64,000 nt of DNA from Anaerolineae bacterium. Lineage in GTDB: Bacteria > Chloroflexota > Anaerolineae > S140-20. The position numbers were made by a program, and so were the translations under genes. Positions 26,286 through 64,000 of the stretch are shown one piece after another. The notes under the pieces were generated by a model. The model was not told where the DNA came from. It did not search any database and was given only the letters and a program-made list of their open reading frames with translations. Location of the stretch: the NCBI GenBank assembly GCA_027021705.1, contig JALUTT010000099.1, positions 44,974 through 108,973 of the forward strand, written 5' to 3'. The first letter of the stretch is position 1. The number at the start of each line of letters is the position of its first letter.

Positions 26286-28133
<1,848 letters not shown>

Positions 28134-28234
28134 CGGCAGCCCTTGGGGTTGCCCGTGGGGCGAGGGGCAAGGCGACGAGGCGACGCAGGAGCAAGGCAAC
28201 GGGGCGACCAGGCAACGGGGCACCGAGGGATGAG

Positions 28235-29458
28235 GTGATGAAGGGGGGAGTGCGGATCGTGATGGTCGGTCCCTTCGGCCTGCGGCCCAAGGGGACGATG
28301 AGCGTTCGGGCCCTGCCCCTGGCCCGCGCCCTGGCCGACCGGGGCCACCAGGTCACGCTGCTCTTGCCTCCTTGGAGCTATCCCCAGGACAGCGGCCGGC
28401 GCTGGCAGGAGGAGGGCGTGACCGTCGAGAACGTCCCGCTGCCCCCCCTCCCCTCCTTCTGGCCCCTGACCCTCACCGGACGGCTGGTCCGGCGCGTCCT
28501 GGCCCTGCGCCCCCAGGTCGTCCACTGCTTCAAGCCCAAGGCCTACGCCGGTCTCGTCCACTACCTCCTCTGGTGGCGACGCCGCCTCCCCCCTGGGCGC
28601 GGGGGCCCCTCCCCCCGCCTGGTGGTGGACACCGATGACTGGGAGGGGCCGGGGGGCTGGAACGAGGTGGTGGACCCATCCACGGGCCGTCCCACCTACT
28701 CCTGGCCCCAGCGCCGTCTCTTCGCCTGGCAGGAGCGGTGGGGGCTGACCCACGCCGACCGGATCACCGTCGCCAGCCGGGACCTGGAGACCCTCGTCTG
28801 GAGCCTGGGCGTTCCCCCGGAGCGCGTCGTCTACCTGCCCAACGGCGTAGGCGTCCCGCCTCCCTCGGATCTTCGGCCCCGCCGACGGCAGGAAGGGCCA
28901 CCCACCCTCCTCCTCTACACCCGCTTCTTCGAGTTCGACCCCGCCCGCCCCCTGCGCGTCCTGCAACGGGTGCGGGAGGCGGTGCCCCAGGCCCGGCTCC
29001 TGGTCGTGGGGAAGGGGCTCTTCGGCGAGGAGCAGACGCTGCTCCGGCTGGCCCAGGAGATGGGGCTGACCCAGGCCGTCCACTACGCCGGATGGGTCGA
29101 GCCCCAAGCGCTGGGGGGCCCCTTCGCCGAGGCCGACCTGGCCCTCTACCCCTTCGACGACACCCTGATCAACCGGACCAAGTGTGCCGTCAAGCTGCTG
29201 GACCTGATGGCCTGGGGGCTGCCCGTCGTCGCCGACGCCGTCGGTGAGAACGCCCAGATGATCGTCCACGGCGAGAGCGGATGGCTGGTGCCGCCGGGGG
29301 ATGTGGAAGCGATGGCCACCGCCGTGATCCACCTGCTGCGACAGGCCCCGCTCCGACGGCGGCTGGGCGAGGGGGCTCGACGACGGGTGATGGCCCGCTA
29401 CACCTGGGAACACCTAGTCGCATACGCGGAGGAAGCTTATGGATTCACCCGCCGATGA
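28235..29458 (+). CDS. Glycosyltransferase family 4
   Basis: LA..GHQV, PNGV, K..VKLLDLMA.GLPVV...VG, GWLVPPGD. Confidence 0.88.
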   Translation: MMKGGVRIVMVGPFGLRPKGTMSVRALPLARALADRGHQVTLLLPPWSYPQDSGRRWQEEGVTVENVPLPPLPSFWPLTLTGRLVRRVLALRPQVVHCFKPKAYAGLVHYLLWWRRRLPPGRGGPSPRLVVDTDDWEGPGGWNEVVDPSTGRPTYSWPQRRLFAWQERWGLTHADRITVASRDLETLVWSLGVPPERVVYLPNGVGVPPPSDLRPRRRQEGPPTLLLYTRFFEFDPARPLRVLQRVREAVPQARLLVVGKGLFGEEQTLLRLAQEMGLTQAVHYAGWVEPQALGGPFAEADLALYPFDDTLINRTKCAVKLLDLMAWGLPVVADAVGENAQMIVHGESGWLVPPGDVEAMATAVIHLLRQAPLRRRLGEGARRRVMARYTWEHLVAYAEEAYGFTRR

Positions 29459-29822
29459 ATCGCTCCTTCGTCACCGGCTCCGCTTCTGGGGGCCTCCCAT
29501 CCTCTGGATGGGGCTCATCTTCTACCTCTCCGCCCAGCCTCAACTTCCCACCCTCGACGAGACCTGGCTCGACTTCCTGCTCAAAAAGGCGGGCCACATC
29601 GTCGTCTACGCCGTGCTGGCCTGGCTCCTGGTTCGCGCCTTGGTTCAAGAAGGGCCGGTCCAGCCCCGCCACCTCCGCCTCGCCCTCCTCCTCACCATCC
29701 TCTACGCCCTCTCCGACGAGCTCCACCAATCCTTCGTCCCCGGCCGCACCGCCCGGCTGCTGGACGTGGGCTTCGACACCTTGGGCGCCCTCCTGGCCCT
29801 GGCCCGTTTCCGCCGACTCTGA
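29439..29822 (+). CDS. VanZ family membrane protein
   Basis: W..LIFYLS, K.GH...YA.L, YALSDE.HQSFVPGR. Confidence 0.9.
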   Translation: MDSPADESLLRHRLRFWGPPILWMGLIFYLSAQPQLPTLDETWLDFLLKKAGHIVVYAVLAWLLVRALVQEGPVQPRHLRLALLLTILYALSDELHQSFVPGRTARLLDVGFDTLGALLALARFRRL

Positions 29823-29884
29823 CCCATTTCTAACGCGCCCTCGACAGCCCTCTCACCTTTGCCGAGTATCATAGGGACTTGGGG

Positions 29885-30072
29885 GGCGGCAAGGGACAAG
29901 GGGCAGGGGGCAAGGGGCAGGGGGCAGGGGGCAAGGGGCAGGGGGCAAGAAGAGGCAAGGGGCAGGGAGCAAGGGACCATCCGACCACCCGGCCACCCGA
30001 CCATCCGACCACCCGGCCACCCGACCATCCGACCACCCGACCACCTGACCAAGGGACCACTTGACCAAGGAG
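29885..30072. repeat. Composite simple repeats (GGGGCAA/G heptamers then GACCACCC-like octamers)
   Basis: Directly visible intergenic tandem runs. Confidence 0.88.
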
Positions 30073-30076
30073 CAAG

Positions 30077-31054
30077 ATGATCCTGGTCACCGGCGGTACC
30101 GGCTTCATCGGCTCGGCCCTGGTCCGGGCTCTGCTGCAGGAGGGCCATCGGGTGCGGGTGCTCACCCGCCGTCCCGACGGCCATCCTTTGCTCTCCCGGC
30201 CGGGCGTCGAGCCCTTCGTCGCCGACCTGACCGACCCGGCCTCGCTGACCGGCGTCGCCGAGGGGGTCGAAGCCGTCTTCCACCTGGCCGGTCTCCTAGG
30301 CGGGAAGAGCGCCGACCCGACCGCCTACGAGGCCCTACACGTCCGGGGCACCGGCCATCTGCTGGAGCAGTTCGCGGGCCGCTTCCTGGTGCGCTTCGTC
30401 CACTGCAGCACCACCGGCGTCCTCGGCCCCATCGCCCACCCGCCGGCCGACGAGAGCCGGCCTCCGCGCCCCTCCAACCTTTACGAGCGAACCAAGGCGG
30501 CGGGGGAACGGCTGGTCCTGGAGCGGGGGCGGCAGCAGGGCACGCCCGTCACCGTCATCCGGCCCGGGATGGTCTACGGGCCGGGGGACCTGCACCACCT
30601 GGGGCTCTTCCGGGCCGTTCAGCGCGGCTACTTCGTCCTCATCGGCGGTGGGCGCAGCACCCTCGATCCCGTCTACATCGCCGACGTGGTGCAGGGGCTG
30701 CGCCGGGCGCTGGAGAACGAGCAGGCGGTGGGCCAGGTCTACCACATCGCCGGCCCCCGCCCGGTCACCGTGCGGGAGCTGGCCGAGGCCATCGCCCGAG
30801 CCCTGGGCCGGCCCTTCCGCCCGCCGACGGTGCCCCGCCCGCTGGCCTTCGCCGGGGCCTGGCTGATGACCGGCCTGCTCCGCCCGTTGGGGGTCCAGCC
30901 CCCCCTCACGCCCGGCCGCGTCCGCTTCCTGACCGAGAACCGGGGCGTCTCCATCGAGAAGGCGCGGCGCGAACTGGGCTACGAGCCGGCCTACTCCCTG
31001 GAGGCCGGCCTGCGGGAGACCGTGGCCTGGTACCGCCGGCACGGATACCTGTGA
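30077..31054 (+). CDS. NAD-dependent epimerase/dehydratase
   Basis: TGGTGFIG, YERTK (YxxxK), RPG.VYGPGD. Confidence 0.9.
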   Translation: MILVTGGTGFIGSALVRALLQEGHRVRVLTRRPDGHPLLSRPGVEPFVADLTDPASLTGVAEGVEAVFHLAGLLGGKSADPTAYEALHVRGTGHLLEQFAGRFLVRFVHCSTTGVLGPIAHPPADESRPPRPSNLYERTKAAGERLVLERGRQQGTPVTVIRPGMVYGPGDLHHLGLFRAVQRGYFVLIGGGRSTLDPVYIADVVQGLRRALENEQAVGQVYHIAGPRPVTVRELAEAIARALGRPFRPPTVPRPLAFAGAWLMTGLLRPLGVQPPLTPGRVRFLTENRGVSIEKARRELGYEPAYSLEAGLRETVAWYRRHGYL

Positions 31055-32103
31055 GCGACAAATTGCGAATTGCGAATTGCAATTTGCAATTTGCAATTTG
31101 CAACTTGCAACTTGCCACTTGCCACTTGCAACTTGTAACTTGCAACCTGAAACTGCCCGTGAACGCTTTTGAGAGGTTCTCCGTCATCATCCCGTCCTAC
31201 AACAGCGCGGCCACCATCCGGGCCTGCCTGGACTCGGTGCTGGCCCAGGAGACGCCGCTGCCCTACGAGATCATCGTCGCCGACAGTTCCGACGACGCCA
31301 CCCCTCGGATCATCCGGCAGCGCTACGGCGACCGGGTGCGGCTCCTCCGCTTCCCCCGCCGGACCGATCCGGGCACCGCCCGCAACACGGCCATCGCCCA
31401 GGCCCAGGGTGACCTGCTCCTCTTCACCGACGCCGACTGCATCGTGCCCCCCGACTGGGCAGCGCGGATGGTCCAGGCCCACCGGGAACAGGACTGCCGC
31501 ATCGTCGGCGGAGCGGTGGTGAACGGCAACCCGGAGAGCCTCATCAGTTGGGCCGGCTACCTGAAGGAGTTCAGTGAGTACCTGCCCGACGCCCGGCCCG
31601 GCTTCGTCCACAGCCTGCCCACCTGCAACATCTCCTACCGGCGGGAGGTCTTCGAGGAGTACGGCGGCTACCAAGGCGACTACTACCCCCAGGAAGACTA
31701 CCTCTTCCACTGGCGGCTGATCAAGGGGGGCGAGCGCATCTACTTCGACCCGACCATCCAGGTGCGCCACGTCCACCGGGCCACCCTGCGCGACTACCTG
31801 CGCCACAGCCACCGCTTCGGCGTCGTCACCTCCCAGGTGCTCAAGATCACCGACCTGCCGGGCCACTGGTTCGCCCGCCGACCCTGGCTCGCGCCCCTCT
31901 TCATCCCGTTTCTGCCCTTCATCAAGTTCACCCGGACGACGCTGCGGACCTGGCGGGTCAACCCGGAGCTGATCCGCCGGCGCCCCCTCGTCCTCCCCCT
32001 CCTCTTCGTGGGCCTGCTGAGCTGGGAGATCGGCTTCATCCAGGGCGTCTATACCGACCACCGACCGCTGACCGCCGACCGAGGCGGGCGGACCGAGGGT
32101 TGA
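31051..32103 (+). CDS. Glycosyltransferase family 2 (alternative start GTG 31159)
   Basis: SVIIPSYN, CL.SVL.Q, ARN, FTDADC (DxD), QED. Confidence 0.88.
   Translation: MSDKLRIANCNLQFAICNLQLATCHLQLVTCNLKLPVNAFERFSVIIPSYNSAATIRACLDSVLAQETPLPYEIIVADSSDDATPRIIRQRYGDRVRLLRFPRRTDPGTARNTAIAQAQGDLLLFTDADCIVPPDWAARMVQAHREQDCRIVGGAVVNGNPESLISWAGYLKEFSEYLPDARPGFVHSLPTCNISYRREVFEEYGGYQGDYYPQEDYLFHWRLIKGGERIYFDPTIQVRHVHRATLRDYLRHSHRFGVVTSQVLKITDLPGHWFARRPWLAPLFIPFLPFIKFTRTTLRTWRVNPELIRRRPLVLPLLFVGLLSWEIGFIQGVYTDHRPLTADRGGRTEG
31061..31148. repeat. AT-rich heptamer repeat TTGCAA(T/C)
   Basis: About 12 imperfect units in otherwise GC-rich DNA. Confidence 0.88.
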
Positions 32104-32108
32104 GACCG

Positions 32109-34766
32109 ATGGCAGAGGGTTCGAGGCTCGGGGTCACAAGCGTTGGACGCGCGGGGCTGGAGATCGCCCTCCACGGGGTCCGGCTGGCCCTGGTGACGGA
32201 CTACCGCCCCCTGCTGGCCTTCGGGCGGGAGTACCTGGGGCCGCTGCTGGTGACCCATCGGGCGGAGCCCGAGGTGACGGTCTCCTTCCGGTTCGACGCC
32301 GATCCGCTGCCCCCGGCGACCTCGGCCACCGGCCTGCGGCGGGCCGGACGGCGGCTCTGGCTGGACGACGGGCGGGTCTACCAGCCGGAACTGCTGGGGT
32401 TCCCCGGCCTCGCCCTCCTGACCCGGCGCCGGGGCAACCGCTGGACCGTCCGGGCGACCTACCGCCCCCCCTCCCGCCTGGCCCGCTGGCACCACCGGCT
32501 GCGCGGCCCCGATCCCCGCCTCGTCGCCACCCTGCTCTACTACCTGGCCTACTTCCCCCTGCTGGCCTACCTGGAGGCGCACCGGGGCTGGACGCCCCTC
32601 CACGCGGCCGGCGTCGCCCTCCCCGAAGGGGGCCTCCTCATCGCCGGCCTGCCCGGCTGCGGCAAGACGACCCTCGCCCTCGCCTTCGCCGCCCGGCCCG
32701 GGGCCCGCCTCCTCTCCGACAACCTGGTGCTCACCGACGGCCGGCAGCTCTACGCCTGCCCCGAACCCATCCACCTGGACGACGGCCTCCGCCCTCTGCT
32801 GCCCGACCTCGCCGACCTCCTGGTGGCCGAGGAGCGGACCGTCACCCACGGGCGGCGCGACTACCGCCCCCGCCCCCACCGCCAGGCCGCCGCGACGCCC
32901 CCCCGCTGGCTCCTCTTCCCCCTCTTCGCCGACGAGGTCCGGCTGGCCCCCCTCTCCCCGGAGGCCGCCCTGGACCGGCTGCTGACCATCGGCGAGCAGA
33001 CGAAGGAGCTGGCCGCCTACACCGCCCAGCGGGCCGTCTGGGGGCTCCTGGACGATGCGCCGGGGTGGGCGGGCCGGGTCCGAGAGCGGCTGACCGACCT
33101 GGTGGAGCGCCTGGCCTGCTACGAGCTGCACCTACCGCCGGGCCGCCCCCTGCCCCCCCTCACCGCCGAGGTGCTGACGGCCCTCACCGCCGTTCCCGCC
33201 TCCTCCGGTCCGGGAACCCCTGCCACCTCCCCGCAAGCCCCCCTGGCCGCCGGCCAAGCGCCGAACCGCCCGGCTGAGAGGGGGAAACCCCCTTCGGGGG
33301 CTGCAAGTCAGCCCGCAGGGCTCTCTTCCCTTAGCCCGGACCTTCCAGGTCCGGGCCAGGCCGGGCAGACACCCCCCGCCTTCGACGCCCGGACCTTGGA
33401 CCCCCGCGCCCTGGAGGCGCTGGAGGCGCTGGCCGCCCAACCCTTCCTGGCCTGCCCCCCCGTGGCCCTGCCCGACCTACACCTCAAGCCCCGCCTGGAA
33501 GCGCCCTCCAGCCTGGCCACGGCGACCCGGGAGCACCTGGTCCTGGGGCTGACCAGCCCCTCCCCCGGCTGCGGGATGGCGCTGGCCGTGACCCCGCTGG
33601 GGGAGGCCGACCTGAGCGCCGAACGGCTGGACCGCCTCTTCGCCCACCTGGGGGCCGTGCTGGACCCCGACCGGTCATCCCCGGCCATCGGCGAGGAGGC
33701 CCTGGACGCGGTGCTGCTGCGGGGAGCCGCCGCTTGGGCGGAGCGGCTGGGGAGGAGCGAAGCGCTGCTGAAGGCCATCGAGGGGGGAGGCGCTGCCTTC
33801 GCGCCCGAGGAGGTGGAGGCCCACGGCCCGGCCATCCTGGCGACGGTGCCGGCCGCCTTCCGCCCCGTCGCCCGGCGGGAGTTCGGCCTGGTGGGGCGGG
33901 GCAACCATTTCCTGGAGGTGCAGGTGGTCGAGGCGGTGCTGGACCCGGCCACGGCGGCGGCCTGGGGGCTCGCCGTGGGCCAGGTGGTGGTCCTCTTCCA
34001 CGCCGACTCCGGCCACCTGGGGGCCATCGTGGGCCGCCTCTTCGCCCACCGGCGCAAGAACAGCCGCCGGGGGCGGCTCATCGAATGGCAGATCAAGCTG
34101 CCCTACCACCTGCGGGGGCTCCGCTCACCGGGGGTTGCCTGGAGCCGAGCCCGCTACTTCCTCCCCCGCCGCTGGCTGCCCATCCCGGCCGACTCGGAGG
34201 AAGGACGGCGCTGCCGATGGGCCCTGGGCGCTGCCACCAACTACGCCTTCGCCAACCGGCTGGCCGTCCTGGCAGCGCTGGAGCAGGCCCTGCAGGCGGT
34301 TTGGGGCGAGCGGGTCGGCCCCCTCCGCCTCCTCTACGACGCGCCCCACAACGGCATCGCCCGGGAGCGCATCGGCGGCCAGGACCTCTGGGTCCACCGC
34401 CACAACGCGGTGCGCGTCACCCCGCCCTCCCGCCTGCCGCCCGACAGCCCCTACCGGGCCACCGGCCACCCCGTGCTGCTGCCGGGAACCCATCGCACCG
34501 CTTCCTTCCTGTGCGCCGGCGATGAAGGGGCTGCCCACACCCTCCACTCGGCCGGCCACGGGGCCGGGGAGACGGCCTTGGCCCTGGGCCGCCCCCTGGA
34601 GGCCCCGGACCGCCGGACCCGCCTCTACCGCTACCGGCGGGGCCTGGTCGAGGAGAGCCCCCCCCTGAGCGACGAGGGCGTGGAGGCAGTGGTGCAGACG
34701 CTGCACCGGTGGGGGATCTGCCGGCCGGTGGTCCGCCTGCGCCCCGTCGCCACGCTCAAGGGGTAG
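32109..34766 (+). CDS. Fusion: HPr-kinase-related P-loop kinase + P/A/S linker + divergent RtcB-family domain
   Basis: N-half LHAAGV...LIAGLPGCGKTT...LLSDN; C-half PDLH, GCGM, GNHFLE, FHADS, PHN, VHRH, GHGAG, terminal LKG in RtcB order. Confidence 0.85.
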   Translation: MAEGSRLGVTSVGRAGLEIALHGVRLALVTDYRPLLAFGREYLGPLLVTHRAEPEVTVSFRFDADPLPPATSATGLRRAGRRLWLDDGRVYQPELLGFPGLALLTRRRGNRWTVRATYRPPSRLARWHHRLRGPDPRLVATLLYYLAYFPLLAYLEAHRGWTPLHAAGVALPEGGLLIAGLPGCGKTTLALAFAARPGARLLSDNLVLTDGRQLYACPEPIHLDDGLRPLLPDLADLLVAEERTVTHGRRDYRPRPHRQAAATPPRWLLFPLFADEVRLAPLSPEAALDRLLTIGEQTKELAAYTAQRAVWGLLDDAPGWAGRVRERLTDLVERLACYELHLPPGRPLPPLTAEVLTALTAVPASSGPGTPATSPQAPLAAGQAPNRPAERGKPPSGAASQPAGLSSLSPDLPGPGQAGQTPPAFDARTLDPRALEALEALAAQPFLACPPVALPDLHLKPRLEAPSSLATATREHLVLGLTSPSPGCGMALAVTPLGEADLSAERLDRLFAHLGAVLDPDRSSPAIGEEALDAVLLRGAAAWAERLGRSEALLKAIEGGGAAFAPEEVEAHGPAILATVPAAFRPVARREFGLVGRGNHFLEVQVVEAVLDPATAAAWGLAVGQVVVLFHADSGHLGAIVGRLFAHRRKNSRRGRLIEWQIKLPYHLRGLRSPGVAWSRARYFLPRRWLPIPADSEEGRRCRWALGAATNYAFANRLAVLAALEQALQAVWGERVGPLRLLYDAPHNGIARERIGGQDLWVHRHNAVRVTPPSRLPPDSPYRATGHPVLLPGTHRTASFLCAGDEGAAHTLHSAGHGAGETALALGRPLEAPDRRTRLYRYRRGLVEESPPLSDEGVEAVVQTLHRWGICRPVVRLRPVATLKG

Positions 34767-34776
34767 GAGGGGAGCC

Positions 34777-36162
34777 GTGCGCTTCTTCCGCCACGTCCTA
34801 AGCACCTTCTTGGCCGAGATCGCCATCGTCGGCCTCAACCTGCTCCTGGGCGTCCTGACCGCCCGGGTGCTGGGGCCGGAGCGCCGGGGCATCCTGGCCC
34901 TGGTGATGACGCTGCCCGTCACCCTGGTCACCTTCGCCGACCTGGGCATCTCCCGGGCCAACATCTACCTCATCGGCCGGCGGGGGCGCTCCCCCCAGCA
35001 GATCGCCTCCAACGCCCTCTTCTTCGCCCTGGCGACGGGGGCGTTCCTGGGGCTGGGCCTCTGGCCGGTCCGGGGGCTGGCCCTCCGCACGCTGCTACGG
35101 GGGCTCCCGGCCCGCTACCTGGCCCTCATCCTGGTGCTGACCCCCTTCCTGCTCCTCTACACCCACTGGCTGGCGATCCTGCGGGCCTTCCAGCGCTTCG
35201 AGCTCTTCAACCTGATCCGGCTGCTGATGCCCCTGAGCCTGTTGGGGATGATGGGGGCGGCGCTCCTCGTCTTCCACGGCGGGATCGGCTGGGCGACGGC
35301 GGCCTACGGCGCGGGGGTCCTCCTGGCCGTGGGGATCAGCCTCGCCATCGTCGGGGCCATCACCCGCCCCCGGCTCCGCTTCGACCGCTCCCTGGCCGGC
35401 GAGGCGATGGCCTACGGCCTCAAATCCTACCTCCAGAACCTGGTCAGCCACCTCACCTACCGGCTGGACCTCTACCTGGTGGCCTACTTCCTCAGCCCGC
35501 GCGAGGTGGCCTTCTACGCCATCGCCACCTCGGCGGCGGAGCTGGCCTGGTACATCCCCAACTCGGTGGGGCTGGTCCTCTTCCCCAAGCTCTCCGCCAC
35601 CGAGGAGGAGCGCATCCACCCGCTGACGGCGGAGATCAGCCGCCACACCCTGCTGATCACCCTGCTGGCGGCCGGCGTCGTCCTGCTGGCCGGTGGCGTC
35701 GGCATCCCCCTGCTCTACGGGGCCGACTACCGGCCGGCCGTCGGTCCGATGGTCATCCTGATGCCCGGCGTGGCGACGATGGCCCTCTACAAGGTGCTGA
35801 GCCGCAACTTCTCCAGCCGCAACCGGCAGGAGGTCTCCATCGCAGCGGCCGCTTTGGGGCTGGCCCTCGACGTGCTCCTCAACGTCATCTTCATCCCCCG
35901 GTTGCGGGTGATGGGGGCGGCTCTGGCCTCCACCATCGCCTACAGCCTGGCGGCGCTGGTCCTGCTGGAGGCTTTCCGGCGGGAGTCGGGGCTGAGCCGG
36001 GAGGCGGTGCTCCGGCTGCGGCAGGACGACCTGCAGCGGTACGCGGAGTTGGTGGCGACGGTCCGGGCGGTTCTCGGCCGATGGCCGACCGCCGATGGCC
36101 GATGGCCGACCGCCGACGGACGACGGCCGACGGCCGACCGCCGATGGCCGACCGTGGACTGA
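34777..36162 (+). CDS. Polysaccharide flippase (Wzx/RfbX-like)
   Basis: ARVLGPE.RG, DLG, RLD.YLV..F, V..YAIA, IP...MGAALAS; multi-TM. Confidence 0.88.
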   Translation: MRFFRHVLSTFLAEIAIVGLNLLLGVLTARVLGPERRGILALVMTLPVTLVTFADLGISRANIYLIGRRGRSPQQIASNALFFALATGAFLGLGLWPVRGLALRTLLRGLPARYLALILVLTPFLLLYTHWLAILRAFQRFELFNLIRLLMPLSLLGMMGAALLVFHGGIGWATAAYGAGVLLAVGISLAIVGAITRPRLRFDRSLAGEAMAYGLKSYLQNLVSHLTYRLDLYLVAYFLSPREVAFYAIATSAAELAWYIPNSVGLVLFPKLSATEEERIHPLTAEISRHTLLITLLAAGVVLLAGGVGIPLLYGADYRPAVGPMVILMPGVATMALYKVLSRNFSSRNRQEVSIAAAALGLALDVLLNVIFIPRLRVMGAALASTIAYSLAALVLLEAFRRESGLSREAVLRLRQDDLQRYAELVATVRAVLGRWPTADGRWPTADGRRPTADRRWPTVD

Positions 36163-36188
36163 GGACCGTGGACCGTGGACTGTGGACT
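36077..36188. repeat. Heptamer repeats CCGA(TGG/CCG/CGG) then GGAC(TGA/CGT/TGT)
   Basis: Spans the flippase stop and encodes the RWPTADG tail. Confidence 0.85.
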
Positions 36189-37052
36189 GGCGAGGAACAC
36201 GAAGGACACCAAGAACTCAAAGAGCACAAAGCGGTACGAAGGGCTGGAGCCCCGCCCCCCCATCCGCTCAATCCGTTCCCCAATCCGCTGACAGCTCGTC
36301 CGCCCCGGCCACGGCGGAGGACACAAAGGACACCAAGAGCGCAAAGAGCACAAAGCGGTGCGAAGGGCTGGAGCCCCGCCCCCCATCCGTTCAATCCGCT
36401 CCCCAATCCGCTGACAGCTTGTCCGCCCCGGCCACGGCGAGGAACACGAAGAACACCAAGAACGCAAAGAGCACAAAGCGGTGCGAAAGGCTGGAGCACC
36501 GCCCCCCCATCCGTTCAATCCGCTCCCCAATCCGTTGACAGCTCGTCCGCCCCGGCCACGGCGGAGGACACAAAGGACACCAAGAGCGCAAAGAGCACAA
36601 AGCGGTACGAAGGGCTGGAGCACCGCCCCCCCATCCGCTCAATCCGTTCCCCAATCCGCTGACAGCTTGTCCGCCCCGGCCACGGCGGAGGACACAAAGG
36701 ACACCAAGAGCGCAAAGAGCACAAAGCGGTACGAAAGGCTGGAGCCCCGCCCTCCCATCCGCTCAATCCGTTCCCCAATCCGCTGACAGCTTGTCCACCC
36801 CGGCCACGGCGAGGAACACGAAGAACACCAAGAGCGCAAAGAGCACAAAGCGGTACGAAAGGCTGGAGCACCAACCCCCCATCCGCTCAATCCGTTCCCC
36901 AATCCGTTGACAGCTCGTCCGCCCCGGCCACGGCGGAGGACACAAAGGACACCAAGAGCGCAAAGAGCACAAAGCGGTGCGAAAGGCTGGAGCACCGCCC
37001 CCCCATCCGTTCAATCCGCTCCCCAATCCGTTGACAGCTTGTCCGCCCCGGC
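36189..37052. repeat. Tandem array of seven about 124-bp units
   Basis: Unit starts at 36189, 36313, 36436, 36560, 36684, 36808, 36932; near-identical along the whole unit. Confidence 0.95.
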
Positions 37053-37096
37053 CTGAAGCGCCGGGGCTGGGAAAGAAGAAACCCAGCACCGCCTGT

Positions 37097-38025
37097 TTAC
37101 GGCGGTGCACAAGGGATGGGGGAGACGCACCGAAACCCGACGTTGACGCTCGAGATGTACGGGACGACCCTGACGCACACCGCACAGCGGGCGATCTCCT
37201 GAAAGTCGTACCACGAGCCGCCACGCACAACGCGCGCTACCTCGTCACCTGGGGAGGGATCCTCCCGACCGTCGTCCGGGCGGTAGGGATAACCGAAGGC
37301 CGGCCGCCGCCAGTCCGGCCCCCACAGGCTCAACGTCCATTCCCACACATTCCCCGCCATGTCGGCCGCGCCATAGGGGCTATCCCCGCCCGGCAGGATC
37401 CCCACAGGTGAGGGTTGCTCGAGCCCGGCCTCGCCCGTATTGGCCCTGCCCTCTTCCCACCTGTCCCCCCAGGGCCAAGTCCGGCCGTCGGTACCCCGAG
37501 CTACCTTCTCCCATTCGGCCTCCGTCGGCAGTCGAACGATCTCGGGTGTCAGGTTCAGGGTCTGAAGTTGTCCCTCCTGCCAGACCTGTACCCTGGAACC
37601 CGTAGCTCGAAACCGCTCCTACAGCCATCGGCAGAAAGCCATCGCTTCGTACCAGGTCACCCCCACCACCGGCTGGTTGGGAGCATTAAAGCGGGGATCG
37701 TGCCAGAAGTCGGGCCGGCCGGTCCGCTGCCACTCCCGGCGCGGCTTTCCCCGCCGCCAGGCCCAGCCGGAGCTCTCTTCGCCCCCCCACCAGGTCGGGT
37801 CGTCGTACCCACCGGCCTCGATGAAGCAGCGATATTGGGCGTTGGTGATGGGGTAGCGGCTGATCAGGAAGGCGGGCAGATCCAGTTGATGCCGGTCCCG
37901 CTCCCCCTCCAGCCATCCCCATAGGAGCTCGAGGAGTTCCTCTTGAGACAACCCTTCAGCGGTATACGTGCCGTCTTCCACCTTCTGCTGTACCCACGCT
38001 TTCCATCGCTCCACTTCCTCAGCGG
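37097..38025 (-). pseudogene. FGE-sulfatase (SUMF1/C-type lectin fold) domain gene, 5'-truncated with in-frame TAG
   Basis: ORFs 37619-38014 and 37097-37405 share a frame; reading through TAG at 37619-37621 gives ITNAQY, PVVGVTWYEA, RLPTEAEWEK, DMAGNVWEW, RGGSW, GFRC. Confidence 0.85.
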
Positions 38026-54534: not shown

Positions 54535-54608
<74 letters not shown>

Positions 54609-59652: not shown

Positions 59653-62600
59653 ATGATCAACCATACGGGTCTCTCGTTCGGCTCTTCCTCCGATCCCTCC
59701 ACACTGGTTGATCTGCTCCGCCGGAGGGCGCGCCACCAGCCCGACCTCCGGGTTTACACCTTTCTGACAGATGGGGAAACGGAAGAAGCGCACCTCACTG
59801 TCGAGCAGTTGGACCGCCGGGCACGGGCTATCGGGGCGTTGCTGCAGGAGATGAGCGCGGCCGGAGAGCGGGCCCTGCTGCTCTACCCGCCGGGGCTGGA
59901 GTACATCGCCGGCTTCTTCGGCTGCCTCTACGCCGGTGTCATCGCCGTCCCGGCCTACCCGCCTGACCCGGCCCGGCTCAACCGCACCCTTCCCCGCCTC
60001 CAGGCCCTGATCGCCGATGCCCGGGCGACCGTCGCCCTCACCACAACGCCGATCCTGACGATGGCCCAGTTCCTCTTCGACCAGGCCCCTGATCTGAAGG
60101 CGCTCCAATGGATCGCCACCGACAGCCTGGAGGAGGGGCTGACAGACCGATGGCAGGAGCCGGACGTGGACCGCGACACACTGGCCTTCCTCCAATACAC
60201 CTCCGGCTCCACGCGCACGCCCCGGGGGGTGATGCTCACCCACGACAACCTGCTGCACAACTCGATCCTGATCACCCGCGCTATGGGGATCACCCCCGAG
60301 GACATCGTCGTCTCCTGGCTCCCCCCCTACCACGACATGGGCCTCATCGGGGCGATCCTGCAGCCCCTCTACATCGGGATCCCCTGTGTCCTGATGTCAC
60401 CCCTTGCCTTTTTGCAGCGCCCCTTCCGGTGGCTGAAGGCCATCTCCCGCTACCGGGCCACCGTCAGCGGTGGACCGAACTTCGCCTACGACCTCTGTGT
60501 CCGCAAGGTCACCCCGGAGCAGCGGGCCGGTCTTGATCTCAGCAGTTGGACCCTGGCCTTCAACGGCGCGGAGCCCGTCCGCTGGCAGACGCTGAAGCAG
60601 TTCGCCGAGACCTTTGAATCCTGCGGCTTTCGGTGGCGGACCTTCTATCCGTGCTATGGGCTTGCCGAAGCGACGCTTATGGTTTCGGGGGGTCGAAGGG
60701 TTGACCCCCCGGTCTTCTGCACAGTCCGCAAGGACGCCCTCGAGCGAGACCAGGTGGTGGAGGTCTCCGACGACGGCGAGGAGAGCCAGACCCTCGTCGG
60801 CAGCGGCCAGCCCGGCGAGGGCCATCAGGTCGTCATCGTGGACCCGCAATCCCTAACCCGGTGCCCGCCGGACCGGATCGGCGAGGTCTGGGTCGCCGGC
60901 CCCAGCGTGGCCCAAGGGTACTGGAACCAGCCCGAGGAGACGGAGCAGACCTTCCGCGCCTACCTGGCGGACACGGGCGAGGGGCCTTTCCTGCGCACGG
61001 GCGATCTGGGCTTCCTGAAAGATGGCGAACTCTTCATCACGGGACGGCTCAAGGACCTGATCATCATCCGGGGGCGCAACCACTACCCCCAGGACATCGA
61101 GCTCACCGTGGAGCAGAGCCATCCGGCCCTCCGTCGGGGCTGTGGAGCCGCTTTCTCGGTGGAAGTGTCCGGCGAAGAGCGGCTGGTCGTCGTCCAGGAG
61201 GTCTACACCCACAAGCCGTGGGACTGGAATGAGGTGGCGGCGACCATCCGCCGGGCAGTGGCCGAGGCCCACCAGGTCCAGGTCTACGCCGTCGTCTTCA
61301 TCGAGCCCCGCACCATTCCCAAGACCTCCAGCGGCAAGATCCAGCGACGAGCCTGCCGGACGATGTACCTCTCCGGCACCCTGGACGTGGTGGCGACCAG
61401 CGTGCTGGACGAAGCGCCGCCTCGGACAGAGCCGGCGCCGGCCGAGGAGCGCCCGCCGGAGAGCCTGCTGGTCAAAGCGCTCCGAGCGATGGCGCCGGAA
61501 CAGCGCCAGGCCCTGCTGGAGTCCCACCTGCAGGAGCAGGTGGCCCGAGTGCTCCGGCTCTCCCCCTCCCAGGTGGACCCCCAACAGCCCCTCGCCAACC
61601 TGGGCCTCGACTCGGTGATGGTCGTGGACCTGGCGGGCGAGCTGGAGTCCAGCCTGGGGGTGACCCTCGACCTGGGAATGCTGTTCCAGGAGATCACCCT
61701 CTCCCAACTGGCCTCCCTGGTGCTGACCGAACTGACCGCGCCTTCCGCGCCGCCACCGCTCCCCTCGGCACCGGCCCCGGAGATCGTCGCCGAATACCCC
61801 CTCTCCTACGGTCAGCGGGCCCTCTGGTTCCTCCAGCAGGTGGCCCCCCAGAGCGCGGCCTACAACCTGGTGCACGCCGCACGGGTGCCCACACCGCTGG
61901 ACGTTCCTGCGCTTCGGCGGGCCTTCCAGCGGCTGATGGACCGCCACCCCGCCCTGCGGACCACCTTCACCACCCTCAACGGGGAGCCGGTCCAGCGGGT
62001 CCACGAGCGGATGGACCTCTCCTTCCAGGTCGAGGACGCCTCCGCCTGGAGCGAGGCCCGTCTGCAGGCCCGGCTGGCCGAGGAGGTCTACCGCCCCTTC
62101 GACCTGGAGCGGGGGCCGCTGATGCGGGTGCTCCTCTTCACCCGCGCTCCCGACGATCACATCTTGCTCCTGGCGATGCACCACATCGTCACCGACCTCT
62201 GGTCCCTGGCCATCTTCCTGCACGAACTGGGAGCCTTGTACACGGAGGAGCGGAGCGGTCGTCCGGCCTCGCTGAAGCCGCTGCGGGCCCAGTACGCCGA
62301 TCACGTGCGCTGGCAGGCCGAGATGCTCTCCGGCCCGGAGGGAGAGCGATTGTGGGCCTTCTGGCGGGAAGCTCTGGCGGGCGACCTGCCGGCGCTGGAC
62401 CTGCCCACCGATCGGCCTCGACCCCCGGTTCAGACCGATCGGGGTGCCGCCCGGACCCTCCGGCTGAGCGCCGAACTGACCCAGGGGCTCCGGTCGCTGG
62501 CCCAAGCCCACGGGGCCTCCCTCCACACCATCCTGCTGGCTGCCTTCCAGGTGCTGCTCCACCGCTACACTGGCCAGGACGAGATCCTGGTCGGCTCCCT

Positions 62601-64000
62601 GAAGGCGGGCCGGAGCTGGAAGATGGCCCGCGTCATCGGCTACTTCGTCAACCCGGTGGTCGTGCGGGCCAATCTGTCCGGCAACCCCACCTTCACCGCC
62701 TTCCTCGAGCAGGCCCACCGGACCACCTTGGCGGCCTTCGAGCACGGGGATTTCCCCTTCCCCCTGCTGGTCGAGCGGCTGCAACCGATGCGGGATCTGA
62801 GCCAATCCCCTCTCTTCCAGGTGCTGTTCGCCTGGCAGAAGACGACGCGCCTGCTCGACAGCCGAAACATCACCGCCTTCGCCGTGGGAGAATCAGGGAA
62901 GCGGCTGGAGCTGGGCGACCTGGTGCTGGAGTCCCTCCCCCTGGAGCACCGGGTCTCCCCCTTCGACCTGACGCTGCTGATGGCTGAGGCCGACGAGGAA
63001 CTGGTGGCGACCATCGAGTACAACAGGGACCTCTTCGACGGGGCGACCATCGGGCGGATGCTGGGCCACTACCGCACCCTGCTGGAGGCCATCGTCGCCG
63101 ACCCCGACCGCCCCATCGCCCATCTCCCCCTCCTGACGGAGGCCGAGCGCCACCAGATGCTGGTCCAATGGAACGACACCGCCGTTGAGGTTCCCCTCGA
63201 CCAACCCGTCCACCGCCTCTTCGAGGCCCAGGTCGAGCGCACCCCTGACGCCGTCGCCCTCACCTTCCAGGACACCCATCTCACCTACCGGGAGCTCAAC
63301 CGCCGGGCCAACCAACTGGCCCACCACCTTCAGAAGCTGGGCGTCGGCCCCGACACCCCCGTCGCCCTCTGCCTGGAGCGCTCCCCTGAGATGGTCATCG
63401 GCCTTCTGGGCGTCCTCAAGGCCGGCGGCGCCTACCTCCCCCTCGACCCCACCTACCCCCCGGAACGGCTGGCCTTTATGCTCCGGGACGCCGGCGTCGC
63501 CATCCTGCTGGTGGACAGCCGGGGCGCTGAGGCGATGGCGGCAATGAGGGATGAGGCGGACGAGGCACCGAGGACTGAGGCACCGAGGACTGAGGCGGAC
63601 AAGGAACCAAGGGATGAGGCACCGAGGGCCGAAAAAGGGCACCCTCATCACGCCTCACGCCTCACGCCTCACGCTTCACGCTTCACGCCTCACGCTTCAC
63701 GCTTCACGCCTCACGCCTCACGCCTCACGCTTCACGCCTCACGCTTCACGCTTCACGCCTCACGCATCACGCCTCACGCTTCACGCATCACCCTCCACCT
63801 CGACGACTGGTCCACCTTCGCCGGCGAGCCGGACTCCAACCCGAACACCCCCCTCTCCCCCGACCACCTCGCCTACATCATCTACACCTCCGGCTCCACC
63901 GGCACTCCCAAGGGCGTCCTGCTCCACCATCGCGGCCTCGTCAACCTCGTCCTCGCCCAGGTCCGCGCCTTCCGCGTCCTCCCCTCCTCCCGCGTCCTTC
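59653..64000 (+). CDS. Lipopeptide NRPS, FAAL-ACP-C-A (runs off window; absent from the ORF track because it has no stop)
   Basis: Manual translation: TLVDLL..RA, FLQYTSGST..PRG, WLPPYHDMGLIG, CYGLAEAT, PKTSSGK; ACP LGLDS about 61600; C domain LSYGQRALW, HHIVTD; A domain LTYRELN, YIIYTSGSTGTPKG. Confidence 0.95.
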   Translation, partial: MINHTGLSFGSSSDPSTLVDLLRRRARHQPDLRVYTFLTDGETEEAHLTVEQLDRRARAIGALLQEMSAAGERALLLYPPGLEYIAGFFGCLYAGVIAVPAYPPDPARLNRTLPRLQALIADARATVALTTTPILTMAQFLFDQAPDLKALQWIATDSLEEGLTDRWQEPDVDRDTLAFLQYTSGSTRTPRGVMLTHDNLLHNSILITRAMGITPEDIVVSWLPPYHDMGLIGAILQPLYIGIPCVLMSPLAFLQRPFRWLKAISRYRATVSGGPNFAYDLCVRKVTPEQRAGLDLSSWTLAFNGAEPVRWQTLKQFAETFESCGFRWRTFYPCYGLAEATLMVSGGRRVDPPVFCTVRKDALERDQVVEVSDDGEESQTLVGSGQPGEGHQVVIVDPQSLTRCPPDRIGEVWVAGPSVAQGYWNQPEETEQTFRAYLADTGEGPFLRTGDLGFLKDGELFITGRLKDLIIIRGRNHYPQDIELTVEQSHPALRRGCGAAFSVEVSGEERLVVVQEVYTHKPWDWNEVAATIRRAVAEAHQVQVYAVVFIEPRTIPKTSSGKIQRRACRTMYLSGTLDVVATSVLDEAPPRTEPAPAEERPPESLLVKALRAMAPEQRQALLESHLQEQVARVLRLSPSQVDPQQPLANLGLDSVMVVDLAGELESSLGVTLDLGMLFQEITLSQLASLVLTELTAPSAPPPLPSAPAPEIVAEYPLSYGQRALWFLQQVAPQSAAYNLVHAARVPTPLDVPALRRAFQRLMDRHPALRTTFTTLNGEPVQRVHERMDLSFQVEDASAWSEARLQARLAEEVYRPFDLERGPLMRVLLFTRAPDDHILLLAMHHIVTDLWSLAIFLHELGALYTEERSGRPASLKPLRAQYADHVRWQAEMLSGPEGERLWAFWREALAGDLPALDLPTDRPRPPVQTDRGAARTLRLSAELTQGLRSLAQAHGASLHTILLAAFQVLLHRYTGQDEILVGSLKAGRSWKMARVIGYFVNPVVVRANLSGNPTFTAFLEQAHRTTLAAFEHGDFPFPLLVERLQPMRDLSQSPLFQVLFAWQKTTRLLDSRNITAFAVGESGKRLELGDLVLESLPLEHRVSPFDLTLLMAEADEELVATIEYNRDLFDGATIGRMLGHYRTLLEAIVADPDRPIAHLPLLTEAERHQMLVQWNDTAVEVPLDQPVHRLFEAQVERTPDAVALTFQDTHLTYRELNRRANQLAHHLQKLGVGPDTPVALCLERSPEMVIGLLGVLKAGGAYLPLDPTYPPERLAFMLRDAGVAILLVDSRGAEAMAAMRDEADEAPRTEAPRTEADKEPRDEAPRAEKGHPHHASRLTPHASRFTPHASRFTPHASRLTLHASRFTLHASRITPHASRITLHLDDWSTFAGEPDSNPNTPLSPDHLAYIIYTSGSTGTPKGVLLHHRGLVNLVLAQVRAFRVLPSSRVL
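63648..63794 (+). repeat. 21 x TCACGC(C/T/A) heptamer, in frame within the NRPS A domain
   Basis: 20 clean units plus 1 degenerate unit (147 bp) encoding (HASR[L/F/I]T[P/L])n. Confidence 0.95.

Follow-up and report, generated by a model that had tools for sequence, protein, structure and literature searches.

A predicted P-loop kinase fused to a divergent RtcB paralog in a surface-polysaccharide operon of an Anaerolineae bacterium

In this study, we analysed a 64,000-nt stretch of DNA from an Anaerolineae bacterium (phylum Chloroflexota; GenBank assembly GCA_027021705.1, contig JALUTT010000099.1, positions 44,974 to 108,973 of the forward strand), which is referred to as a whole as the window. 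At 32109..34766 on the + strand it carries a gene for an 885-aa protein in which a predicted kinase module is joined by a linker to a domain of the RtcB family, and this gene is placed within a surface-polysaccharide operon. Because the kinase and the RtcB-like protein recur as a pair of separate genes in several phyla, the two probably handle phosphate on glycans. In Chloroflexota, Acidobacteriota, Actinomycetota, Dormibacterota and other phyla, a clade of RtcB paralogs is genetically tied to a kinase and to genes for glycan assembly and export, which suggests that the synthesis of envelope polymers includes a biochemical step not yet described.

In the passages of PMC8051266 and PMC10630183 that deal with its function, RtcB is treated as a nucleic-acid ligase or capping enzyme, and the roles named in the corresponding part of the latter, a 2023 review, are RNA ligation, rRNA repair and DNA capping only. 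If the function proposed here is true, it would provide the first non-nucleic-acid substrate for the RtcB family and a route to glycan phosphodiesters without CDP- or UDP-activated donors in at least four phyla. No link between RtcB and the synthesis of polysaccharides or other glycans was found in the full-text literature, the coverage of which leaves out most subscription journals, and within the same coverage the statement of the original prediction, made from the sequence of the window, that no such system had been described is consistent with what was found. What the window adds is the covalent fusion, the assignment of the kinase to the PEPCK/HprK fold, and the kinase–glycosyltransferase and kinase–exporter fusions described below.

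The two halves of the fused protein

The fused gene has two candidate start codons, TTG at 32100 and ATG at 32109, and its stop codon ends at 34766. A GAGGG sequence resembling a Shine–Dalgarno element lies about 10 nt 5′ of the ATG, and the length of 885 aa is counted from this start. The local DNA is 76% GC, and the in-frame GC content at third codon positions (GC3) is 0.85–1.0 in both halves of the gene; because it is high in both, the open reading frame (ORF) is coding and not a chance frame in GC-rich DNA. The motifs quoted in the original prediction begin at residues 164 (LHAAG), 180 (GLPGCGKTT), 202 (LSDN) and 817 (HGAG), and its description of a single 885-aa ORF made up of a P-loop kinase, a linker rich in P, A and S, and an RtcB-like domain is borne out by the frame itself, these motifs and Pfam.

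The RtcB-family domain comprises residues 433–885 (33405..34763, + strand). Residues 440–885 match PF01139 with an E-value of 2.4e-53 (182.4 bits against a cut-off of 27), and residues 451–885 are matched by chains of Pyrococcus horikoshii RtcB (PhoRtcB) with an E-value of 9e-34. We compared 80 paralogs, taken from the loci described in the next section, with six canonical RtcBs from the source genome and its relatives, using PhoRtcB numbering transferred by alignment and the residue roles given in the active-site passages of PMC8051266. Cys98, His203, Phe204, Glu206, His234, His329 and the nucleophile His404 were unchanged in all 80 paralogs. The Mn1 ligands Cys98, His234 and His329 correspond to Cys488, His631 and His747 of the fused protein, and the guanylylation nucleophile His404 corresponds, by alignment to 1uc2, to His817 in the HGAG motif (codon at 34557..34559, + strand). 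The fused protein is thus like the canonical enzymes (P. horikoshii PH1602, Escherichia coli RtcB and human RTCB) in Pfam family, in fold-level sequence match, in the His nucleophile, the bridging Cys98, His203 and the Mn1 ligands His234 and His329, and in the GNHFLE and HGAG motifs.

It is unlike them in the residues that contact RNA. In PhoRtcB the 5′-OH strand is held by the side chains of Arg190, Gln194, Arg238 and His242 (PMC8051266). Arg238, whose E. coli counterpart has a 200-fold effect on sealing (PMC8051266), was present in none of the 80 paralogs, being replaced by Gly or Glu, and neither was Gln194; Arg190 was present in two and His242 in eight. The fused protein has Gly635, Glu591, Val587 and Ala639 at the positions of Arg238, Gln194, Arg190 and His242, respectively. 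All six canonical RtcBs carried the PhoRtcB residue at every surveyed site, save one alignment gap each at Asp65 and Asp95. In a quick tree, a branch with 100% support separated the 83 paralog rows from the canonical RtcBs, with the RtcB part of the fused protein inside a Chloroflexota subclade of the paralogs; in this quick version the long branches P0181, P0035 and L072 are uncertainly placed. Taken together, the RtcB half is a divergent RtcB paralog with the predicted guanylylation core retained and the usual RNA-holding residues lost. Given that the catalytic core is retained, formation of a His-GMP intermediate and transfer of the GMP to a phosphomonoester are suggested. A further difference from canonical RtcB is that the domain is fused to a kinase and encoded in a glycan operon with neither archease nor RtcA.

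The kinase module comprises residues 13–366 (32145..33206, + strand). The AlphaFold2 model of residues 1–370, built with 29 homologues, had a pLDDT (predicted local distance difference test) of 91.1 and a pTM (predicted template modelling score) of 0.89. The best Foldseek matches to the model were ATP-dependent phosphoenolpyruvate carboxykinases (PEPCKs; E 1e-10, identity 11–18%). A structure search independent of Foldseek aligned 286 residues of PEPCK 1ii2_B over both domains (model residues 13–366) with a Z-score of 15.2, followed by HprK/P chains over model residues 158–370 (1ko7_B, Z 12.0; 3tqf_B, 11.8; 1knx_A, 11.8; 1jb1_A, 11.7) and PPi-dependent PEPCK (Z 7.5), the next unrelated chain having a Z-score of 4.9. 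Pfam gave no family for this half, neither Hpr_kinase_C (PF07475) nor PEPCK, and the NCBIfam matches were all sub-threshold (HprK_rel_A, E 1.7e-9 and 37.2 bits; HprK_rel_B, 25.5 bits; cut-offs 200; and also FomB). On the model and these searches, the kinase half is predicted to be a two-domain P-loop kinase of the PEPCK/HprK superfamily that lies outside any named family.

ATP-dependent PEPCK is the best structural match over both domains, but the kinase module is about 150 residues shorter and has neither the sequence identity nor the Pfam match expected of that enzyme, and the model indicates a shared superfamily, not a shared function. The resemblance to HPr kinase/phosphorylase and to HprK-related kinases A and B (TIGR04352 and TIGR04355) lies in the fold of the C-terminal P-loop domain (Z 11.7–12.0), in the motif pattern H...G.G.GK[ST]...DN and in the weak NCBIfam matches; the differences are a best score of 37 bits against a cut-off of 200, a PEPCK-like N-terminal domain and no tie to HPr. 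An HPr domain is encoded on another contig of the source genome (C67), and nothing ties it to the fused gene. The label 'HprK-related' in the original prediction is therefore apt at the level of superfamily and fold but not at that of family, where the scores fall below the NCBIfam cut-offs and the fold is at least as near to ATP-dependent PEPCK. Nine positions are invariant in the 29 kinase homologues (P150, H165, G183, G185, D204, N205, E219, P220 and E300), of which G183 and G185 belong to the Walker-A P-loop GLPGCGKTT (residues 180–188; 32646..32672, + strand).

Recurrence of the pair among glycan genes and rarity of the fusion

When one genome per species was scanned, 251 relatives of the RtcB paralog were obtained, from which 80 loci were kept for all locus counts. 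They come from Anaerolineae and other Chloroflexota, Acidobacteriota, many Actinomycetota, Dormibacterota and a few other taxa. In 75 of the 80 loci, a kinase profile detected a same-strand kinase homologue upstream of the paralog, directly adjacent (<300 nt) in 43, one gene off in 12 and two genes off in 20; among the five loci without a match, three (L020, L033 and L040) offer too short an upstream stretch. The split pair is also found in cultured bacteria, among them Streptomyces, Streptacidiphilus and Amycolatopsis, which makes the question genetically testable.

The neighbourhoods of the pair are made up of glycan genes. Neighbour families were defined as rough ORF clusters, with Pfam identities taken from cluster representatives. 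By these clusters, a glycosyltransferase (GT) ORF of family GT4 or GT2 is present in 60 of the 80 loci, a CapD/epimerase ORF in 51 and a DegT ORF in 34; the cluster F0, present in 65/80 loci, lumps Wzx, Wzy and APH-kinase ORFs and serves as a rough marker only. The recurrent neighbours are GT4, GT2, CapD/PglF-type dehydratase, DegT aminotransferase, Wzx flippase and Wzy_C, together with a UbiA-type prenyltransferase, a phosphotransferase of the PPDK/PEP-utiliser type, a radical-SAM/SPASM enzyme, an ABC exporter, a Mur-ligase-like protein, Asn synthase, PIG-L deacetylase, formyltransferase and NTP_transferase. The gene directly downstream of the paralog, examined in 76 loci, encodes an APH-family kinase (PF01636) in 43, a Wzx/MOP flippase in 10 (including all nine of L004–L012), a Wzy_C protein in seven, a GT4 in six and members of other families in three, and had no family match in seven. 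The recurrence of kinase–RtcB pairs with GT and Wzx genes, which the original prediction had proposed as its test, was thus observed, and the homologues lie among glycan genes rather than mainly in RNA-repair contexts, the finding that it had named as counting against it.

Two variants of these loci were seen. In loci of the actinobacterial type the paralog is flanked by two unrelated kinases, the downstream one being of the APH family (e.g. L026:9316-10590); the window has no such gene. The kinase homologues that have Arg in place of the Walker-A Lys all come from loci of this type (L030, L037, L039, L042, L050, L060, L065, L067, L071, L076 and L079). Several Chloroflexota loci add, near the pair, a phosphotransferase of about 870 aa with PPDK_N and PEP-utiliser domains, a UbiA-type prenyltransferase and a radical-SAM/SPASM enzyme (examples at L004:11947-14592, L005:10823-11896 and L003:3646-4749). 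A tblastn search with the cluster representatives found none of these three genes in the window.

The linker of the fused protein (residues 367–432; 33207..33404, + strand) consists of P, A, G or S at 42 of its 66 positions. The GC3 signal collapses at 33200–33320, and both flanks are in the same frame. In the relatives the kinase and RtcB-like genes are separate and 48–230 nt apart; given this gap and the collapse of GC3, the linker apparently represents a former intergenic region, through which translation now continues, together with the stretch for the N-terminal tail of the RtcB-like protein. We compared contigs from public runs with the window over 32800–33700. One set (X1), which may be from the source sample itself, covers the whole interval without a difference. 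Contigs from another study (X2) tile it, one of them spanning 33187–33700 with seven substitutions and no indel, and a contig from a third study (X3) spans 33273–33423. Applying the X2 and X3 differences to the window introduces no stop into the fused frame. Since contigs from two other studies leave the frame open, the fusion is not an artefact of one assembly, a concern that the original prediction had itself raised.

The fused form is nevertheless rare. In a word-indexed protein search, in which the 7999 candidates sharing most words were scored, the 885-aa form matched only itself; the other 33 matches were stand-alone proteins of 487–523 aa, the nearest of which, of 487–494 aa, are 65–67% identical to the RtcB-family domain. 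Both parts lay in one open frame in none of the 80 loci from species-representative genomes, and three of 40 relatives of the same class carry an RtcB paralog, each with a separate adjoining kinase gene. With regard to the possibility that the fusion is a one-off, the pairing of kinase and RtcB clearly recurs, but the fused form comes close to being unique. An origin of the fused frame in an error of sequencing, assembly or gene calling, with two genes that are in reality separate, is hardly credible, and so is a dead, non-functional gene. The absence of a common frame in the 80 loci, the stand-alone nature of the nearest relatives and the weak coding signal in the linker would fit such an explanation, but they are set against contigs of X2 and X3 that span the linker region, with no indel in X2 and no stop in either, against high GC3 and every conserved catalytic residue in both halves, and against an independent kinase–RtcB fusion. 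Long 'RtcB' ORFs of 640–826 aa in six loci (L018, L019, L032, L045, L063 and L077) proved to be start-codon artefacts with no kinase in frame.

Out of 1.84 billion cluster representatives, a profile of the kinase family matched 280 at E ≤ 1e-30, and fusions were looked for among the best 150 of these. The kinase was found fused behind a GT2 (P0141, 635 aa), in front of a GT4 (P0113, 784 aa), behind a GT4 (P0170, 790 aa), behind an ABC exporter (P0110, 984 aa) and behind an N-terminal region without family match (P0057, 760 aa). A second kinase–RtcB protein, P0181 (755 aa), is a metagenomic representative. Its RtcB part, with 297 bits to PF01139, is closer to canonical RtcB and is placed on a long branch apart from the paralog clade; given this position and the Arg that it has at the Arg238 position, P0181 appears to be an independent fusion. 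P0058, which combines a CapD fragment, the kinase and an RtcB fragment, reads like a frameshifted gene call and was not counted.

Proposed function and alternatives

We propose that the fused protein would act as a bifunctional cytoplasmic enzyme in a surface-glycan assembly line. The PEPCK/HprK-type module would use ATP to phosphorylate a hydroxyl of a glycan building block, which would be a sugar or else a lipid-linked repeat-unit intermediate produced by the adjacent GT2, and the presence of this partner suggests an obvious source of phosphate for the RtcB-like domain. The latter, judging from its retained catalytic residues, would self-guanylylate on His817 with GTP and move the GMP to the phosphomonoester to give X-O-P-P-5′G, as RtcB makes RNA(3′)pp(5′)G. 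In a last and least certain step, the GMP would be displaced by a hydroxyl belonging to the glycan or to a substituent, and the resulting phosphodiester in or on the repeat unit would then be exported by the downstream Wzx flippase. Bifunctional or paired enzymes such as HldE, Fkp and, in F420 synthesis, CofC/CofD follow a similar sequence of phosphorylation and activation by a nucleoside monophosphate, and with CofC/CofD a hydroxyl displaces GMP and leaves a phosphodiester. The folds that these enzymes use for nucleotidyl transfer are unrelated to RtcB, and they are not known to form a covalent His-GMP intermediate.

We put the full route, from the phosphomonoester through the ppG form to a phosphodiester made before export by Wzx, at slightly short of an even chance. 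The more general proposal that RtcB-type chemistry (His-GMP, phosphate-ppG and attack by a hydroxyl) has been recruited to make phosphodiester or pyrophosphate links in exported glycans is possible without being probable. As to the glycan-phosphate reading in the original prediction, the lost contacts to the 5′-OH strand and the fusions of the kinase to GT2, GT4 and an exporter favour a non-RNA, glycan-linked substrate, whereas the chemistry itself we infer. Its more speculative suggestion of a joining of glycan to RNA found nothing in support, and there is at best a very slim chance that the exported polymer stays guanylate-capped or is joined to RNA. Of all the observations, the fusion speaks most directly for joint action of the kinase and the RtcB-like enzyme, and it offers a single polypeptide for biochemistry.

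Several observations weigh against the phosphodiester route. Gene neighbourhood and fusion show a functional link, not a chemistry. The Mn2 ligands Cys98 and His203 are present, but Asp95, a ligand that in PhoRtcB helps to hold the metal at the GTP γ-phosphate (PMC8051266), is replaced in all 80 paralogs (by Ala in 40, Ser in 39 and Gly in one) and is Ser485 in the fused protein. The position of Asn202, a residue that holds the attacking hydroxyl and without which E. coli RtcB cannot seal (mutant Asn167Ala; PMC8051266), is Asn in 45 paralogs (Asn599 in the fused protein) and Thr in the other 35, and the guanine-side Lys480 is retained in 22 of the 80 and in the fused protein. On the kinase side, the Walker-A Lys is replaced by Arg (G-x-G-R-S/T) in 11 of the 29 aligned homologues, which, judged by the motif, is unusual for an active P-loop kinase, and two loci (L043 and L057) have the RtcB paralog and 8 kb of upstream DNA but no kinase. 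Neither a Wzy polymerase nor an initiating phosphoglycosyl transferase was among the window ORFs scanned, which were not all of its ORFs; both may lie elsewhere in the genome.

Some of these observations would be accommodated if the RtcB-like domain stopped after transfer of the GMP and released a GDP-sugar or GDP-X donor, made from a sugar phosphate or an acid phosphate, for a neighbouring GT or other transferase. Bifunctional kinase/nucleotidyltransferases such as HldE or Fkp would then be its functional analogues. The residues for a second, hydroxyl-bearing strand are absent throughout the clade and Asn202 is Thr in 35/80 paralogs; a GT gene directly adjoins the pair in the window and in most loci, the kinase is fused to a GT2 or GT4 in three representatives, and an APH-family kinase is encoded directly downstream of the paralog in 43/76 loci. 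The APH family includes anomeric sugar kinases, and some RtcB paralogs of Myxococcus xanthus (RtcB3, which caps 5′-phosphates) mainly transfer GMP to a phosphate end. The loss of sealing in E. coli RtcB Asn167Ala (PMC8051266) and the differences in ligation and capping among the M. xanthus paralogs (PMC10630183) are in line with such an arrested reaction. The latter are a precedent for divergent activities among the RtcB paralogs of one genome, but they act on nucleic acids, and the passages of PMC10630183 on them describe neither a glycan context nor a kinase fusion, a distinction that is drawn by description and not by sequence. Nevertheless, we consider an enzyme of activation alone unlikely: ordinary nucleotidyltransferases already do this job, and a few of the loci encode one (NTP_transferase, family F22); nothing shows that the phosphate is anomeric, and the active-site Asn of the fused protein and of 45/80 paralogs is compatible with the third step of the phosphodiester route.

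A substrate other than a glycan is less probable still. Every RtcB characterized in the relevant passages of PMC8051266 and PMC10630183 acts on RNA or DNA ends, and the strong Pfam match, the nucleophile and the intact Mn1 site of the fused protein would suit a pair for end-healing or capping of RNA or DNA that merely resides in a glycan operon, or for RNA repair under envelope stress. However, throughout the clade other residues stand in for the four side chains that hold the 5′-OH strand, and Asp95 is gone as well; in at least four phyla the pair keeps its place among GT, Wzx/Wzy and amino-sugar genes, and the kinase is elsewhere fused to GTs and an exporter. On contig C8 (64505-66398, minus strand) the genome also has a canonical RtcB gene (586 bits) that lies about 200 nt from an archease gene, and RtcA is encoded on contig C125; in agreement with the original prediction, no rtcA or archease gene is present beside the fused gene or anywhere in the window. 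Nor is there an RNA element near the fused gene, since the sole match in an Rfam scan of the window is a tRNA at 54535–54608. Taking all this together, we regard a nucleic-acid enzyme as improbable. More improbable again is a peptide or protein substrate, on which the kinase would phosphorylate a Ser and the RtcB-like domain would link this phosphate with a sugar (phosphoglycosylation) or some other group. There is a precedent in the lasso peptides paeninodin and pseudomycoidin: according to the passages of PMC8498205 on these systems, HprK homologues phosphorylate the C-terminal Ser of lasso precursors, and in pseudomycoidin a second enzyme adds hexose to that phosphate. The nearest sequence families of the kinase are indeed HprK_rel_A and HprK_rel_B, and a radical-SAM/SPASM gene is present in some Chloroflexota loci. 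Those systems differ in having a ribosomal peptide as substrate and a nucleotidyltransferase as the partner of the kinase, where here the partner is RtcB-like and no lasso genes were seen; among the ORFs scanned around the fused gene there was no match to RRE/PqqD, a lasso cyclase or a protease. Furthermore, ABC exporters were seen only in Acidobacteriota loci, the likeness of the kinase module to PEPCK, which is a kinase of small molecules, extends over both of its domains, and the fusions of the kinase are to GTs.

The surrounding operon and other features of the window

The fused gene lies in a run of + strand genes, from 26286 to 36162, that brings together a Wzx flippase, glycosyltransferases and sugar-modifying genes. 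At its head is a gene for a GlmS-like glutamine–fructose-6-phosphate amidotransferase (26286..28133, with SIS and GATase domains), followed by a GT4 glycosyltransferase (28235..29458, Glyco_trans_4_4 and Glycos_transf_1), a VanZ-like membrane protein (29439..29822, PF04892, E 5e-14), an NAD-dependent sugar epimerase/dehydratase (30077..31054, PF01370, E 3e-42) and a GT2 glycosyltransferase of 314 aa (about 31159..32103, PF00535, E 4e-35). Downstream of the fused gene is a MOP/Wzx-type flippase (34777..36162, with Polysacc_synt_3, Polysacc_synt and MurJ matches), all of these genes being on the + strand. The fused gene starts 5 nt after the GT2 stop (32103) and ends 10 nt before the Wzx start (34777); gene coordinates and Pfam thus bear out the two neighbours and spacings that had been claimed. 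The 680-aa GT2 ORF from 30061 did not hold up: it is a composite, the first half of which overlaps the epimerase gene (30077–31054) in another frame, and the coding frame switches near 31054, so that the GT2 gene proper, as judged from this switch and the start candidates, is about 31159–32103. The GT2 of the window is 48% identical to the GT2 encoded upstream of the kinase in Chloroflexota loci, and its Wzx is 46% identical to the flippase encoded downstream of the RtcB paralog there. Given that both match their positional counterparts, the succession of GT2, kinase, RtcB-like gene and Wzx is inherited synteny. A reading of the fused gene as part of a defence system was dropped, PADLOC families matching neither the fused protein nor three of its neighbours.

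Repeats are found at several places around the operon. The spacer between the epimerase and GT2 genes (about 31060–31150) is taken up by short direct repeats whose unit resembles TTGCAA. Repeats of 7, 14 and 21 nt (36075–36189) extend across the 3′ end of the Wzx ORF, so that its product has a repetitive 'RWPTADG' tail, and directly 3′ of the gene is a tandem array of seven copies of a 124-bp unit with 92% matches (36192–37053). Beyond the array, two minus-strand ORF pieces (37097–37405 and 37619–38014) match FGE-sulfatase (PF03781) over profile positions 173–254 and 24–108, respectively; with the middle of the profile unmatched and the two pieces in different frames, this looks like a broken gene. 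Farther downstream, and unrelated to the fused gene, a non-ribosomal peptide synthetase module (AMP-binding, PP-binding and Condensation) is encoded on the + strand at 59653–63999 and continues past the window end.

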